A DNA stretch of 64,000 nucleotides from Nitrospinales bacterium (GTDB lineage: Bacteria; Nitrospinota; Nitrospinia; Nitrospinales; VA-1), in NCBI GenBank assembly GCA_965262115.1, contig OZ253496.1, positions 896,001 through 960,000 of the forward strand, read 5' to 3'. This document shows, piece after piece, positions 2,646-9,269 of the stretch. How positions within the stretch are numbered: position 1 is the first letter of the stretch; each line of letters opens with the position of its first letter. Both the position numbers and the translations under genes were made by a program. Under the pieces are notes generated by a model. That model did not search any database and was not told where the DNA came from. It saw only the letters and a program-made list of their open reading frames with translations.

Positions 2646-3245
2646 ATGAAAAAAACACTTATATTCTTACTCTCTTATCTTTCTGTTTTTGTTTTTTTGT
2701 TTTGCGGTTCTTCTCTTGTCTTTGGTGATGACTTACAGGATGGTTTGGATGCGCATAGAGGAAAAGACTATAAAACGGCATACAAGCTATGGTTTCCATT
2801 AGCCGAACAGGGAGATGCTCCCGCGCAATACAGATTGGGTGTGATGTATGAGTTCGGACTAGGAGTTCCGCAAGACTACAGGGAAGCGGTTAAATGGGTT
2901 CGGCTTTCAGTGGAATAGGGAGATGCTTCCGCGCAATACAACTTGGGTGAGATGTATCGCTTCGGACAAGAAGTTTTACAAGACGACAAAGAAGCGGTTA
3001 AATGGTATCGGCTGGCAGCCGAACAGGGATTAGCTCAAGCACAATACAACTTGGGTGTGATGTATAAGACAGGACGAGGAGTTCCGCAAGACTATGCGTC
3101 AGCGCATATGTGGTTCAATCTCGCGGGTTCTAATGGAGACAAAAACGCCATAAAACTTAGAGACCTGGTGGAAGAGCGCATGTCTCCATCTCAAATAGAA
3201 AAAGCGCAGGAAATGGCAAAAAACTGGAAACCATTAAACAAATAA
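2646..3245 (+). pseudogene. Secreted Sel1-like repeat protein interrupted by an in-frame TAG at 2916-2918
   Basis: Signal peptide and AEQGDA-AQY-LG-MY repeats. The two track ORFs are in one frame, separated only by TAG where sister repeats have CAG (Gln). Confidence 0.85.
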
Positions 3246-3326: not shown

Positions 3327-4382
3327 TCAGGAAAATTCAAACCGGCGGATGGACTCCACCATGGCTGAGGCAGAACGGGCGCTGATAAATTTTTGCTGGT
3401 CATAGCCCTTGACCATGTCCCAAGCCTGTTCAGGATACATCTCAATCAGGGGAAGGGCCACGTCATCCAGCATCCATTGCCCGTGGCGGATATCTTCCTG
3501 AATGTGAAGGTCCCAATAGCGGGTGCCCTTGTCACCCATCCCCAGGCGTTCTCCTGCCATTTTGATATTCTGAAAAGCGGCGGGAACAGAAACTTCGGTA
3601 TACAACAAACCGCCGACATAACGTAAAAAGTTTTTCTTACGCTCGGAAAGGAAAAAGCTATGGTTGATGTTGGCCAGCACTTCCCACGGCACAAGATCAA
3701 AATAAGCTTCCGGCCTGGAGTCCATATCGCATTCTTCCAGCATGGTCGCAAAATGAGTGGAATGTTTTCTGGAAAACTTCCCACTGCCATACTCTTCCCA
3801 TAAAATCCGGGTCAGCATCGTCTGCACCTCGTTTCCGACACCTCCCAACATTCGAGAAAGCTGACTGGCTTCCACCAAACCATCCAGGGAAGTGATGGCA
3901 AGCAATCGCTGATATCCGGATTTTGAAATTTCATTGCGGATGATCAATCCATCCGGAGAAGGCTCGGGTTGCAGGTCTTCTCCCACGCGGTCACGGAGGG
4001 CGTCGATGAGATTACCAGAATAGCGCGGGACACTATTACGCTCCTCCCAACCCTGCCATGCATTTTCAATTTTCAAACGCAAAGAAAACAGAAAGCTGGA
4101 ATCTTCATTGGCATAATTTTCCAACTCGTCATACCAAAACAGCTTCAAACGGTTGATGCGATAAAGAATCCTTTGCAAAAACAGGTGGGCCTGGGGGCAT
4201 CCCTCGCCATCATTAAAAGCATCCGACAAGGACGTTTCCAGTTCCGAATTAAAACTTGCGGCCTTCTCAGGATTTTCTGAAATGACCCGATCCAGATCAT
4301 CTAAATGCAACAATCCGACAAACTCCTCCTCCAATTCATGATATGCAAAATCAGTTGAGTCCGTTTGCAAATTAAAATTCAT
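3327..4382 (-). CDS. Iron-containing redox enzyme, heme-oxygenase-like diiron oxidase (HDO) family
   Basis: Helical protein with candidate ligand motifs LVEAS, EEYGxG...H, YTEV, HIQEDIRH and YDQ. Confidence 0.8.
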   Translation of the reverse strand: MNFNLQTDSTDFAYHELEEEFVGLLHLDDLDRVISENPEKAASFNSELETSLSDAFNDGEGCPQAHLFLQRILYRINRLKLFWYDELENYANEDSSFLFSLRLKIENAWQGWEERNSVPRYSGNLIDALRDRVGEDLQPEPSPDGLIIRNEISKSGYQRLLAITSLDGLVEASQLSRMLGGVGNEVQTMLTRILWEEYGSGKFSRKHSTHFATMLEECDMDSRPEAYFDLVPWEVLANINHSFFLSERKKNFLRYVGGLLYTEVSVPAAFQNIKMAGERLGMGDKGTRYWDLHIQEDIRHGQWMLDDVALPLIEMYPEQAWDMVKGYDQQKFISARSASAMVESIRRFEFS

Positions 4383-4589
4383 AAGCTTTGGGAATATGAA
4401 GATTAGAATTAGGGTCTGTTTATTCCTCTAAAAACCAGAACCCGAAAAACATCTTTACTGTCGGAAGCTTTGCCTCGCAGTAATCGTCAGAGACGATAAA
4501 TAAAGATGTAAAAAGGAGTTAAGAGACGTACTATAACAAACACCATCAACAAGGTCAAATTCACCAGGCAGGAAGAGGAGCCACCGTTC

Positions 4590-5585
4590 TTGTTTGAAAC
4601 AAAAATACTGAAATCCGGACCGCAATCATTCTCCCCCGAAGAACAGTTTGCCGACACCGTCAACACTGGCCTTTCCCTTGAAAACAAGCGTTTGCCATCA
4701 TGGCTGATCTTTGACAGCGTGGGAAGTGAGATTTTCAAAAAGATAACGGAACTCGCAGGATATCTTCCCGCCGCATGTGAATTTGAAATTATTCGCAACC
4801 ATAAAAACAATATTGCAAAACTTATCACCGGTAACACCTTCAACCTTATAGAACTCGGTTCAGGCGATGGATGCAAGACCCGGATTCTCATTGAGCATTT
4901 GCTGAGTAAGAAATCCAGTTTTCACTATTTCCCCATTGACATTTCCCACGGAGCGGTTACAAATCTGGTTCGGTCATTGGAAGACAACCACTCCGGCGCA
5001 TCCCTGAAGGTCACAGGATTAACCGGAGATTATTTTGAGGGTCTCAAAGCCATTTTCCAGGATGGCCCAACGCAAAACCTGGTCCTCTTTCTCGGAGTCA
5101 CCTTGAATAATATGGATCCGGACACGGCCCAGTCTTTTCTGAAAAATTTATGCAATGCATTGGGGGCGAAGGATTATCTGCTAATCGGGTTTGACCTCAT
5201 GAAAAATCCCAAATTGCTTTATTCTGCCTACAATGATTCCGAAGGACTCTTTGAAAAATTCAACCTGCACCTGCTGGACCGCATTAATCAGGAACTGGGC
5301 GCCGATTTTAACAAAGAGCACTTTGTGCAACAGGGCCAGTTCAATCCCGATACCCGCGCTGTAGAAAGTTATCTTTTCAGCACGCGGGACCAGACCGTGT
5401 ATATCAAGGCTTTAAACAAGAACTTTCACTTCAAAGCCTGGGAAGCGATGCAGACCGAGCAGTCCTTTAAATACACCCTTGAAGAAATAGAACACCTGGC
5501 CGTTAAAAACGGATTTGAAGTCGTGGAGCATTTATTTGACTCCCGAAAATATTTTGTGGATTCAATTTGGAAGGTTGCCCACTAA
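4590..5585 (+). CDS. egtD: EgtD-family (methyltransferase_33) SAM-dependent amino-acid N-methyltransferase
   Basis: IELGSGDGCKT SAM motif, YFPIDIS, LLIGFDLMK, AYND..G, TExSxKY; TTG start after GAGGAG. Family is secure but substrate is uncertain. Confidence 0.82.
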   Translation: MFETKILKSGPQSFSPEEQFADTVNTGLSLENKRLPSWLIFDSVGSEIFKKITELAGYLPAACEFEIIRNHKNNIAKLITGNTFNLIELGSGDGCKTRILIEHLLSKKSSFHYFPIDISHGAVTNLVRSLEDNHSGASLKVTGLTGDYFEGLKAIFQDGPTQNLVLFLGVTLNNMDPDTAQSFLKNLCNALGAKDYLLIGFDLMKNPKLLYSAYNDSEGLFEKFNLHLLDRINQELGADFNKEHFVQQGQFNPDTRAVESYLFSTRDQTVYIKALNKNFHFKAWEAMQTEQSFKYTLEEIEHLAVKNGFEVVEHLFDSRKYFVDSIWKVAH

Positions 5586-5972: not shown

Positions 5973-7742
5973 TTAGCGTTTTTGATGAAGATTATTCATA
6001 GGCAGGCTGAAGTGAAATGTAGCACCATGACCGAGCTGGCTATCGACCCCGATACTTCCCTGATGTTCTTCGACAATTCTCTGGGCAATGGCCAACCCCA
6101 ACCCGGAACTGCTTTCACCTGCAGTGGGGCGAGCGCTTAATTTTTGAAAATGCTGGAATAACTGTCCTTGCTCATCCGCGGAAATCCCCGGCCCTTCATC
6201 CTTTACGCTTAAAGTCATGGTTTCCCCATGCGACACCAGTTTGACAAAAACCTCTTTATCAGGCGGCGAATACTTCACTGCGTTGCTGAGAAGGTTATCC
6301 ACCACCTGCCCGATTCGGTTTGCATCAAAATAAAATTCAGGAACCTCTTCAAAATCCGCATGGAGCCTGATATTTTTTTTGTCCGCCAAAATCTGTTGCA
6401 GATGAATCTTCTCTTCTGCAAGTTTTTTTATGGATGACTTTTCGGGATTCAATTTCAACTGGCCGCTTTCGATCACCGAGATATCCAGAAGGTTGCTGAT
6501 CAGTTCCAGCATATTTCCGCTGACATTTTTAATGGTTGTTAAAAACTCCTGCCGGGTATCTTCTTTGACTTGCGTTCCTTTATCTAAAAGAAACTTGGAA
6601 TAGCCGCGAATGGAAGCAAGAGGATTCCTGAGGTCATGCGATGCGATCCCGAGAAATTTATTTTTCAAATCGTTCACCTCAACAAGCTTCTCGTTCGCCA
6701 GAGTCAGTTCTTCCGTGCGAACCTGAACCTCTCTCTCCACAACGCGGGTCCGCGATGCCATCATCTCAATGATGATGGAAAGGAACAGAGCCCCTGAAAA
6801 GATAGCAACGCCCACCCAGAACGCGTTTAATGTTTGAGGACCGTCGCGAAACTCCCTGGTCGCCTGCCAAACCAGGAACCATCGACGATTGGAAACATTG
6901 ACCACGTTGGTGATGCTCATGGCCGGGTTCTTCAACGGACTACCATAAAGCAGGTTTCCCTCAACCAGTTCGCCTTCTTCATAAACGGTCAAGTTCATCC
7001 CTTTGGGAATATAAGGACTGACCATTTGGTCAATCATGTCCTGCACCCGGTATATGCCCAGCACAAAACCTTTTAGATGCTCCCGCCGTTCTTCAGTGCG
7101 TTCCGCCCTTTTATTATAGAAGGGAGCCAGGATGATGAGATCCGATTGCGAGTGGGCATTGGGAACCGGGCCAAACCGCGAAGCCGCAACCGCCCTGCCC
7201 GAATCTCTGGCAGCATTGGCAAGCTGTAACAATTGTGGATCGGAGGCCAGGTCAAACCCCAGCGTCTGTTCATTGCCGGGAAGCGGCTCCGAATAATGCA
7301 CCGGAAAATATTCCTGCTTCGCCTCGGAAGGGCCGGAAGATCCAAAGATATGAAACTCGGCATATCCCACAGAACGGGTAATGCCTTCGAACCCTTCCCT
7401 TTCAGAGTGGTCAATGCGCGGAACCCACTCAAACGCCTGAATGAAAGGATGATTCCCTAAAAGGGGCTGAACATAAACTCCAAACTCTTCCCGGCTTACA
7501 AACTCCGAAGAACGGTAAAGAGAAACGATGCCGCCCAATTCCCTTTTCACCACTTCAAGTTCACCGGTCAAAATAAGGGTGTCTTCCAGCACCTCTTGTT
7601 CCAGTTCATCAAACCAGACTTTCTGAGCCCGGTCGCGGACAATGCCCCAACTCATCACAGCCAGAATCAATCCCGCTATCAGTACACCTCTGGTCTGGCT
7701 TGCCAATGATCTCATTCCATCTTTCTCTGAAATTGTAAACAT
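5973..7742 (-). CDS. CHASE-domain sensor histidine kinase
   Basis: TM-CHASE (EWVPRI, YFPVHYSEP, LGFDLAS)-TM, then H-box ASHDLRNPL, N-box NLLSNAVKY, DEGPG and GLGLAI. Confidence 0.92.
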   Translation of the reverse strand: MFTISEKDGMRSLASQTRGVLIAGLILAVMSWGIVRDRAQKVWFDELEQEVLEDTLILTGELEVVKRELGGIVSLYRSSEFVSREEFGVYVQPLLGNHPFIQAFEWVPRIDHSEREGFEGITRSVGYAEFHIFGSSGPSEAKQEYFPVHYSEPLPGNEQTLGFDLASDPQLLQLANAARDSGRAVAASRFGPVPNAHSQSDLIILAPFYNKRAERTEERREHLKGFVLGIYRVQDMIDQMVSPYIPKGMNLTVYEEGELVEGNLLYGSPLKNPAMSITNVVNVSNRRWFLVWQATREFRDGPQTLNAFWVGVAIFSGALFLSIIIEMMASRTRVVEREVQVRTEELTLANEKLVEVNDLKNKFLGIASHDLRNPLASIRGYSKFLLDKGTQVKEDTRQEFLTTIKNVSGNMLELISNLLDISVIESGQLKLNPEKSSIKKLAEEKIHLQQILADKKNIRLHADFEEVPEFYFDANRIGQVVDNLLSNAVKYSPPDKEVFVKLVSHGETMTLSVKDEGPGISADEQGQLFQHFQKLSARPTAGESSSGLGLAIAQRIVEEHQGSIGVDSQLGHGATFHFSLPMNNLHQKR

Positions 7743-7898
7743 GATCAGTTTATCATTTTTTTCTTAAAATTAACGCCACCCGGCCGCAGCGTGATGCTGG
7801 ACTCAAATTGTAATAACTCTTTCCGGTTAACAAAGAGCTGGCTCGGCTTAAAAAACTTTATTATATTCCTTCTCACGGGAGTGAGCTACAATCATAAA

Positions 7899-9269
7899 AT
7901 GACCAACGAATTAATATTTGTAGTCGATGACGATGCCCCGCTAAGAGGCTTGATGAAAGCACTTCTGGAAGACCAAGGCTACACAGTGCGGGATTTCGAA
8001 AGCGGTCACGCCTTGCTCGACTCGTTGGACGACAGCCCTTCTCTGATCCTGCTTGACGTGATGATGCCTGGGCTTGATGGGGTGGAAACCTTGAAGCGGA
8101 TCAAAGCCGCGCGTCCGGACCTGCCGGTCATTATGCTGACCAGTGTTGACAAGGTGGAAACTGCGGTGGAAGTCATTAAACAGGGCGCTTACGATTATTT
8201 ATTGAAGCCTGTTGACGAGCCTCGCCTGTTCACCTGCCTGGATAAAGCTTTTGAACAAAGAAATCTTGTTCGCAAGGTCAACCACCTGCAAGGCGAAGTG
8301 GACCGTCTATCCGGCAAATATGGCATCATCGGAAAAAGCAAGACGCTCAATGAAACACTGAAAAAAGTTCATCAGGTCTCTGCCAGCAAAGCTGGTGTCC
8401 TCATCCTTGGGGAAACCGGAACCGGCAAGGAACTCATTGCCCGCGCCGTCCACCGAAACAGTTCCTACGCCACCGGGCCTTTTGTCGACATCAATTGTGG
8501 AGCTATCCCTGAAACGCTTCAGGAAAGCGAATTATTCGGCCATAAAAAAGGCGCTTTCACTGGTGCCATCGAGTCCCGTGTGGGAAAACTGGAACTGGCG
8601 AATGGGGGTACTCTGTTTCTCGATGAAGTGGCGGAAATGAGCCCCGCCACTCAGGCAAAACTTCTGCGTTTTCTACAGAAAAAAAGTTTTGAACGCGTCG
8701 GTGACAACCAGAAAATCCAAGTCGATACCCGTGTGGTCTGTGCGACCAACAAGAATCTTAAGACTTTAATCGACAAAGGAAGCTTTCGCGAAGACCTTTA
8801 TTATCGGATCGCCGTTTTCCCCATCGAAGTTCCCGCGCTTCGTGACCGGGTGGAGGACATTCCCCTGCTCTGCACCCACTTCCTCAAAAAATATCAGGAA
8901 GAGGTTGGCAAGGACGTTCTGTCGGTCAGCGATGAAGCCATGCAGATTTTGCAGGATTATTCATGGCCAGGAAATATCCGCCAATTGGAAAACACAATTT
9001 ACCAGTCCATGATCGTCACTTCCTACGACACCATAGATGCCGACTGCCTGCCGGAAGGAGTCTGCGACTCTTCAGCTCCTGCTAATGAGAAGATAAACGA
9101 AAAAGCTTCTTCCGGTTCCACAATCTTCACCCCCTACCATGATGTGGTCAAACAAACCTTGAAGCAGGCCCTGGAACAAACCGGTGGAAACATTCCCGGC
9201 GCGGCCAAGGCTTTGGGTATCAGCCGCAGCACGTTTTACCGCATGCTGAAAAAATACCAACTGAACTGA
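7899..9269 (+). CDS. NtrC-family sigma-54-dependent response regulator
   Basis: Receiver VDDD/LLDVMMP, Walker [23 protein letters not shown] and Fis-type HTH. Start placed at ATG 7899. Confidence 0.93.

Follow-up and report, generated by a model that had tools for sequence, protein, structure and literature searches.

A conserved divergent pair of genes for a heme-oxygenase-like diiron enzyme and an EgtD-type methyltransferase variant in nitrite-oxidising bacteria

Results

The two genes form a conserved divergent cassette

We analysed a stretch of 64,000 nucleotides from a Nitrospinales bacterium (contig OZ253496.1 of assembly GCA_965262115.1, positions 896,001 to 960,000; hereafter, the window), in which a gene for a heme-oxygenase-like diiron enzyme (HDO) and a gene for an S-adenosylmethionine (SAM)-dependent methyltransferase of the EgtD fold are transcribed divergently. 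A first-pass annotation of this DNA had described the pair with a 207-bp spacer, and both open reading frames (ORFs) and the spacer were found as it placed them. The locus contains the following features (window positions).

3327-4382, minus strand: HDO gene, 351 aa, PF14518 match of 101 bits
4383-4589, no strand: divergent spacer between the HDO and methyltransferase genes, 207 bases
4530-4558, minus strand: sigma-70-like promoter candidate for the HDO gene, TTGACC-17-TATAGT with an upstream TG
4575-4580, plus strand: Shine-Dalgarno-like GAGGAG, 9 bases 5' of the methyltransferase TTG start
4590-5585, plus strand: EgtD-fold SAM methyltransferase gene, 331 aa, TTG start, PF10017 match of 295 bits

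Among 61 Nitrospinota genomes of the same order, the methyltransferase was present in 33 and the HDO in 41, and the methyltransferase gene was the divergent neighbour of the HDO gene by coordinates in all 33 genomes that bear it. A scan of GTDB genomes for the HDO was evaluated for the best 80 of 567 loci, and the methyltransferase adjoined the HDO at 59 of them. These 59 fell within the 67 loci from Nitrospinota, Nitrospirota and probably mis-binned records, while none of the 13 other loci had the pair; five of the eight misses start less than 700 bases from a contig end. The orientation was divergent in 72 of the 72 related pairs scored. The synteny survey that the first-pass annotation had suggested thus shows a divergent cassette that is conserved. 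Four records titled as other groups (L095, L103, L121 and L134) carry an HDO that nests among those of Nitrospinota or Nitrospirales, and these contigs are probably mis-binned, as judged from their sequences. At one locus (L222; G212:C15:3636500-3645800), a gap of about 2.3 kb, which contains two other ORFs, separates two parts of the cassette methyltransferase; this looks like an insertion.

In Nitrospirales, the order of genome G061, 93 of 151 genomes have a PF10017 gene. The 30 best loci and 37 further loci were inspected, and the remaining high-scoring matches were assigned from their E-values alone. Fourteen of the 151 genomes carry the same variant methyltransferase, each time adjoining an HDO gene, and a canonical-type egtD copy is also present in 12 of these 14; an EgtB/OvoA-like gene is no more than about 4 kb from the canonical copy in G061 and G168. 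Because the two types occur together in one genome, the Nitrospirales variant is a paralogue with its own job. From all loci collected, the HDO adjoined 74 of 74 variant loci versus 0 of 58 canonical-type loci, a count that is partly circular since many of the loci were fetched by the HDO query; the 61- and 151-genome surveys are free of this circularity.

The promoter candidate for the HDO gene is the top-scoring site of the region (10/12). When the related spacers were scanned (72 scored and 2 of 74 skipped), a sigma-70-like site of at least 9/12 was detected on the HDO strand in 56 of 72 and on the opposite strand in 11, against a shuffle mean of 16.4, although these kin are not independent and the pattern by itself is not rare by chance across 64 kb. 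Purine runs similar to GAGGAG precede the methyltransferase start in related spacers.

The methyltransferase is an EgtD-type variant with two fixed pocket changes

The methyltransferase matched PF10017 (Methyltransf_33) far above the cut-off of 23 bits, and its structure model (predicted local distance difference test score, pLDDT, of 87) superposes on EgtD with template-modelling (TM) scores of 0.86-0.89. On the other hand, it scored 258.6 bits on TIGR03438 (EgtD), under the cut-off of 290.9, and 171 bits on TIGR03439 (EasF-type), under the cut-off of 205.55. In a Nitrospirales genome, the variant scored 265.3 bits on TIGR03438, while the canonical copy of the same genome scored 338.3. The closest homologues carry Nitrospinota labels, and the public label on these proteins is 'L-histidine N-alpha-methyltransferase'. 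The first-pass annotation had listed motifs that differ from those of typical EgtD, and all of them are present at EgtD-equivalent places, together with the retained SAM and TExSxK motifs (protein positions).

35-42: LPSWLIFD
57-64: GYLPAACE
88-94: ELGSGDG, the SAM motif
168-174: LGVTLNN
219-225: GLFEKFN
289-294: TEQSFK

The window protein keeps the SAM residues G90, K96 and D117, and also Y58, G169, N174, Y214, E290, S292 and K294, and has W38 and F221 at the positions of EgtD K36 and T213, respectively. For comparison across the subfamily, pocket positions were numbered by alignment to M. smegmatis EgtD, and after removal of duplicates and rows shorter than 280 aa, 74 distinct variant sequences were obtained. 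Residue roles were taken from PMC8593015 and PMC9103826, and no source was found for a role of Lys36. Gly161, Asn166, Tyr206, Phe216, Asn217, Glu282, Ser284 and Lys286 were invariant in 74 of 74 sequences and Tyr56 was kept in 73. The variant therefore has the alpha-amino-acid anchors of EgtD (Tyr56, Gly161, Asn166, Tyr206 and Ser284) as well as its SAM residues Gly86 and Asp113.

The imidazole sub-site is different. In EgtD, Thr213 positions a water molecule that binds the imidazole nitrogen, and Glu282 binds the terminal amine of the ligand in one EgtD complex (PMC8593015). Glu282 is kept throughout the variant subfamily, whereas Thr213 is replaced by Phe and Lys36 by Trp in all 74 sequences; Tyr39 is replaced by Phe in 61 of them. 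In contrast, position 213 was Thr or Ser in 58 of 58 canonical-type sequences, and Phe was seen in about 6 of the 151 nearest representative rows. These residues suggest that the enzyme still binds an alpha-amino acid and presents it to SAM, with a changed side-chain site.

K36W and T213F are the subfamily-specific changes, and other differences were not diagnostic. Met252 is Ser in 70 of 74 variant sequences, and the PDB title of 4PIP describes M252V/E282A as a tryptophan-binding variant. However, M252S was rejected as a specificity change, since Ser (with Thr213) is found in the majority of the 151 representative rows and in egtB-linked relatives; related EgtDs that adjoin bona fide egtB have Ser at Met252 and also Cys at Thr61. 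LGVTLNN was rejected as a mark of the subfamily as well, being present in 32 of 74 members while LGSTIGN is retained in 29.

The HDO carries the seven-ligand signature of SznF-like enzymes

The HDO belongs to its superfamily by the PF14518 profile, by the helical-bundle fold and by a ligand set of three His and three carboxylates. Residues E197, H207, E263, H293, D297 and H300 align with the six core ligands of SznF, and E171, in auxiliary helix 2, aligns with the seventh ligand, SznF Glu189 and RohS Glu98. All seven were invariant in 127 of 127 homologues. D167, which matches SznF Asp185, was kept in 122 of 127, and the substrate-pocket helix SLDGLVEAS is nearly invariant. The sequence matches in the PDB were SznF, RohS and HrmI only (E = 6e-13 for the SznF central domain), and the structure model (pLDDT 79) gave HrmI, SznF and RohS as the top fold matches, followed by FlcD. 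By Pfam, no cupin domain was detected in the 351-aa protein, which gave PF14518 only, nor in two longer homologues.

The seventh ligand has been proposed as a marker of N-oxygenases, and Asp185 matters for methylarginine binding in SznF (PMC7848743). The same Glu is essential in RohS (PMC13133933), and HrmI N-oxygenates without a seventh ligand (PMC13108848). From these residues, the HDO is very probably of the N-oxygenase type. The first-pass annotation had offered N-oxygenation and C-C cleavage as options; given the seventh-ligand signature, the former is favoured and the latter appears less likely. A plasmid search gave only distant HDOs (20-36% identity), and an ESM Atlas search gave only uncharacterised PF14518 and methyltransferase clusters. 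One 626-aa eukaryote transcriptome record (P0391) contains a close HDO homologue (43% identity, covering 80% of the query) that is much extended at its N terminus, and may be an algal organelle-targeted copy or contamination.

The same HDO subfamily has another methyltransferase partner in cyanobacteria

HDOs of the same subfamily (53-56% identity) were found in 30 of 251 cyanobacterial genomes. At 29 of the 30 loci, the HDO gene has an adjacent gene for a methyltransferase of 230-270 aa with an invariant NPPY motif, one of the 29 being fragmentary. This enzyme is weakly HemK-like and unrelated to the EgtD fold, and its gene sits downstream of the HDO gene, not divergently. Thus, a methyltransferase usually accompanies this HDO, and in the nitrite oxidisers it is an EgtD-derived enzyme. 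One 681-aa protein (P0390), on a single contig of 2,779 bases, has the HDO fused to the NPPY methyltransferase (58% identity over 226 aa to the enzyme of locus L243); as a single record, it may reflect read-through or mis-assembly.

At 4 of 5 Pyrinomonadaceae loci, the gene immediately upstream of the HDO gene is dimethylargininase-like; the HDO is rare in that phylum, with 1 of 251 genomes, the one being the centre genome of the survey. The source genome of the window also has a dimethylargininase-like gene (L238:4783-5550; G000:C1:2047782-2048549, minus strand), which was found in 58 of 61 related genomes and apparently belongs to the core gene set of these nitrite oxidisers. With this distribution, its co-occurrence with the cassette was discarded as uninformative. 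Two cassette-bearing Nitrospirales genomes gave just weak dimethylargininase-like matches (E about 1e-14). Some cyanobacterial and Acidobacteriota HDO loci lie among stress-type genes (PfpI, Ku and a YbdK-type ligase).

The ergothioneine partner EgtB was not found in the source genome

The source genome (2.68 Mb in one contig, 93.9% complete) has one PF10017 gene and one PF14518 gene. EgtB was not found genome-wide by TIGR03440, which gave 38 matches, all partial, below the cut-off and none reaching the N-terminal 150 positions of the model. The DinB_2 domain was not found either, in a search that detected 5 of 14 controls, and tblastn with five EgtB/OvoA-like proteins matched C-terminal parts only. 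These searches address the sulfur-inserting partner EgtB, which the first-pass annotation had named as the gene that might lie elsewhere; EgtC and a molybdopterin-type synthase were outside them. Rhodanese matches were located in open frames of 112-388 aa, and EanB is weakly excluded, as EanB itself was not the comparison. A screen of the 61 relatives gave EgtB in 0 of 61 at E 1e-40, which is not evidence, as it detected no control and scored at most 24 candidates per genome. The 38 partial matches correspond to the C-terminal FGE/sulfatase-modifying-like part of the model, and the relatives have tens of first-look candidates each; by sequence, they appear to be a large paralogue expansion of unassigned purpose.

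In the sister group of the variant, EgtD loci have an adjoining EgtB-like gene in 53 of 80 cases (42 of the 54 loci of at least 4.5 kb) and an adjoining HDO gene in none. All eight sister-group neighbours tested pass the EgtB cut-off. Two further types of EgtD-like loci were observed. Non-cassette Nitrospirales loci (L187-L217) contain a second EgtD variant with EYGLTRA, TEAC and Ser284 changed to Cys in 24 of 24; it adjoins an EgtB/OvoA-like gene that is below all three cut-offs, and genes that are ABC-transporter-like by eye. In the sister clade, three EgtD-like genes (L305, L330 and L340) directly follow genes for proteins of about 1,125 aa resembling molybdopterin oxidoreductases by eye, which are possibly metallopterin-dependent ergothioneine synthases (PMC9516567).

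The variant is one clade within the EgtD kin

In a quick tree of 60 rows, the variant methyltransferases formed one clade (SH-aLRT 99) arising from the egtB-linked sister group and separate from the canonical EgtD of Nitrospirales. Together with the TM scores above, this tree gives the phylogenetic and structural comparison that the first-pass annotation had called for, and places the variant within the EgtD kin. In quick trees without bootstrap, the Nitrospirales HDOs and methyltransferases were each one clade (99) within the Nitrospinota sequences. The nested clades and the patchy presence (14 of 151 genomes) suggest that the cassette was transferred between the two phyla. A direction of transfer was considered and set aside, since the trees do not settle it: Nitrospinota monophyly of the methyltransferase was not rejected (approximately unbiased test, p-AU 0.44).

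Flanking genes

Just downstream of the HDO gene, a Sel1-repeat gene occupies window positions 2646-3245 (plus strand) as two short ORFs of 90 and 100 aa. Several relatives have a single ORF of about 380 aa at this position, and the window gene is likely split or shortened. Directly after the methyltransferase gene, a CHASE-domain histidine kinase and a divergent sigma-54 response regulator are encoded (window 5973-9269); comparable regulators flank the cassette in only some close relatives.

Discussion

The pair exists and is conserved, and the literature searched offers no characterisation of it; no paper on an HDO/EgtD-variant pair or its product was found there, most subscription papers being outside the coverage. 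A predicted N-oxygenase cluster corresponding to this HDO may already appear in the network tables of PMC7848743 and PMC11363339. It is quite probable that the HDO and the methyltransferase share a pathway, because the HDO keeps a methyltransferase partner even though the fold of the partner changes from EgtD-type to HemK-like NPPY, with one fusion. It is also likely that the methyltransferase substrate is an amino acid other than histidine. The enzyme does not look like an ergothioneine enzyme because it scores below the EgtD cut-off, T213F and K36W are fixed, canonical egtD coexists with it and no egtB was found. The first-pass annotation had proposed a two-enzyme route to a product other than hercynine, and the conserved pair, T213F and the coexisting canonical egtD support that proposal; none of the three findings that it listed as refuting was obtained, to the extent that sequence can show.

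In the pathway that we propose, the alpha-amine of a free, non-histidine L-amino acid, most probably arginine, would be N-methylated by the methyltransferase. The substrate carboxylate would be held by Y58, Y214 and S292, and the amine by N174 and G169 beside SAM. F221 would remove the water-mediated contact with imidazole, and E290 would pair with a cationic side chain. The HDO would then form a peroxo-diiron species independently of the substrate, as in SznF and RohS, and this species would attack a side-chain nitrogen. Stated only at the level of the pathway, namely that the alpha-amine of a non-histidine amino acid is N-methylated and a nitrogen of the product is oxygenated by the HDO, the proposal is reasonably likely. 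The complete two-step scheme, with arginine as the most probable substrate and oxygenation on the side chain, has about an even chance. Arginine taken specifically is a tentative assignment by analogy; it is the best single guess because SznF and RohS oxidise guanidine-type nitrogens (PMC11705231, PMC13133933), a dimethylargininase-like gene neighbours some HDO genes, and the kept Glu lies under a more aromatic pocket. We infer that methylation precedes oxygenation, and, from the sequences, that histidine methylation has been lost and a product of this kind is made. A stress-protective or reactive-nitrogen role of that metabolite is weakly suggested.

Several observations weigh against this proposal. 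The HDO shares just 19-24% identity with SznF, RohS and HrmI, too low for transfer of a substrate assignment. Its best fold match, HrmI, is a lysine enzyme without the seventh ligand, and RohS shares the LDGLxEA motif yet acts on 2-aminoimidazole, so that D167 is no proof of an alpha-amino-acid substrate. The dimethylargininase-like gene of the source genome is far from the cassette and does not track it, and the atom methylated by the cyanobacterial NPPY enzyme may be a different one. At the 80 loci, the pair had no further conserved companion gene, nor a transporter or reductase. Furthermore, the HDO occurs without the methyltransferase in 8 of the 41 Nitrospinota genomes and can be kept alone; one of these eight is a 50-residue fragment, one lies 236 bases from a contig end, and six have no nearby methyltransferase remnant. 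Finally, the methyltransferase retains Glu282 together with every backbone anchor, and its closest kin are EgtDs linked to egtB, which keeps histidine among the candidate substrates.

This last point leads to the alternative that survives best, although it is unlikely: the methyltransferase still methylates histidine, to hercynine or a lower form, and the HDO oxidises the product to a sulfur-free histidine derivative. The retained Glu282 and anchors, the descent from EgtDs beside egtB and the imidazole compound used by RohS (PMC13133933) are all consistent with it. However, Phe at position 213 in every variant, where the canonical types have Thr or Ser, argues against it, as do the canonical egtD already present in most cassette-bearing Nitrospirales genomes and the unrelated fold of the cyanobacterial partner.

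The replacements K36W and Y39F near the methyl-transfer site could alter the degree of methylation, and it is conceivable, if improbable, that the methyltransferase stops at an N,N-dimethyl amino acid and that the HDO oxidises this tertiary amine to an N-oxide, a protectant resembling trimethylamine N-oxide. Peroxo-diiron N-oxygenases favour nucleophilic substrates (PMC7848743), the stress-type genes near some cyanobacterial and Acidobacteriota loci would suit a protectant, and an HDO aids desiccation survival of Acinetobacter (PMC13232832). Nevertheless, a tertiary amine N-oxide product is not described in the available parts of PMC7848743, PMC13133933 and PMC13108848, and the SznF residue that D167 matches holds the alpha-ammonium in place rather than leaving it exposed.

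A reversed order is quite improbable. The HDO would first make an N-hydroxy amino acid, which the methyltransferase would cap or detoxify, as in fluopsin C synthesis, where FlcE and FlcD act before N-methylation by FlcA (PMC11363339). The HDO is found without the methyltransferase in at least six genomes, the methyltransferase was never seen without the HDO, and the conserved promoter candidate is directed at the HDO gene, all of which would fit. But SznF requires the methylated substrate from SznE (PMC11705231), and the methyltransferase pocket retains ordinary alpha-amino-acid anchors. Co-regulation only, with the HDO as an iron or peroxide sink and the methyltransferase alone making an amino-acid betaine osmolyte, is very improbable, because two unrelated methyltransferase folds are each kept beside the HDO, once fused, and the HDO pocket helix is nearly invariant, even though the pair is divergent and not operonic, iron sequestration and scavenging of reactive oxygen species are among the options for DtpC (PMC13232832), and Nitrospina gracilis has no catalase or superoxide dismutase (PMC3578206).

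Among known systems, our proposed order of methylation and N-oxygenation is closest to SznE/SznF of the streptozotocin pathway, in which SznE makes N-omega-methylarginine and SznF N-hydroxylates it (PMC11705231). Both pairs combine a methyltransferase with a seven-ligand HDO, and the window HDO keeps the equivalents of Asp185, Glu189 and the six core ligands. They differ in that the window HDO (about 22-24% identity; 351 versus 471 aa) has no cupin domain, which predicts that there is no SznF-type nitrosation step, and in that its partner has the EgtD fold with alpha-amine anchors and no other szn genes are nearby. With the histidine N-alpha-trimethyltransferases EgtD and EanA, the window methyltransferase shares the fold, the SAM residues, the carboxylate and amine anchors and Glu282, but it is below the cut-off, has T213F and K36W, and in the loci examined is never beside egtB and always beside an HDO gene. 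The N-oxygenases RohS (azomycin) and HrmI/BelK (nitro-forming, on lysine) are stand-alone HDOs of similar size, with LDGLxEA in RohS and a TM score of 0.76-0.77 for HrmI; however, identity is 19-22%, HrmI does not have the seventh ligand, and no methyltransferase partner is described for either in the available parts of the sources. FlcE/FlcD/FlcA similarly combine HDO steps with SAM-dependent N-methylation of an amino-acid-derived small molecule (PMC11363339), although FlcD matches the fold less well (15-16% identity), differs in its ligand set and belongs to a larger cluster. The cyanobacterial pair has the same HDO subfamily with a different methyltransferase fold, and is uncharacterised in the literature searched. 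A guanitoxin analogy, with the N-hydroxylase GntA as an HDO, was rejected; GntA is a YqcI/YcgG heme enzyme (PMC10849742), while the window HDO is of PF14518. By analogy, the pair would work like SznE/SznF, but it is not SznE/SznF, and it is not EgtD by the tests applied.

The label 'L-histidine N-alpha-methyltransferase' on these proteins should not be taken as ergothioneine synthesis. Ergothioneine is unmentioned in the available parts of two genome papers on nitrite oxidisers (PMC10579370, PMC3578206). If our proposal is true, a new natural substrate would be established for a bacterial enzyme of the EgtD fold, a stand-alone N-oxygenase would be known from an uncharacterised HDO subfamily, and the replacement of one methyltransferase fold by another would be cleanly documented; both enzymes are small and, by prediction, soluble. 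As a speculation that we regard as doubtful, nitrite oxidisers and many large-genome cyanobacteria might share one undescribed methylated, N-oxygenated amino acid, serving to protect against stress or to store reactive nitrogen, with the EgtD-derived enzyme having replaced a HemK-like one and the cassette having moved between nitrite-oxidising phyla. Among marine nitrite oxidisers, Nitrospinota are those encountered most often (PMC3578206), and a two-gene route kept across their genera and common to marine Nitrospirales points to an abundant, undetected metabolite, whose N-oxygenated form could bear on nitrogen-oxide chemistry in these organisms.

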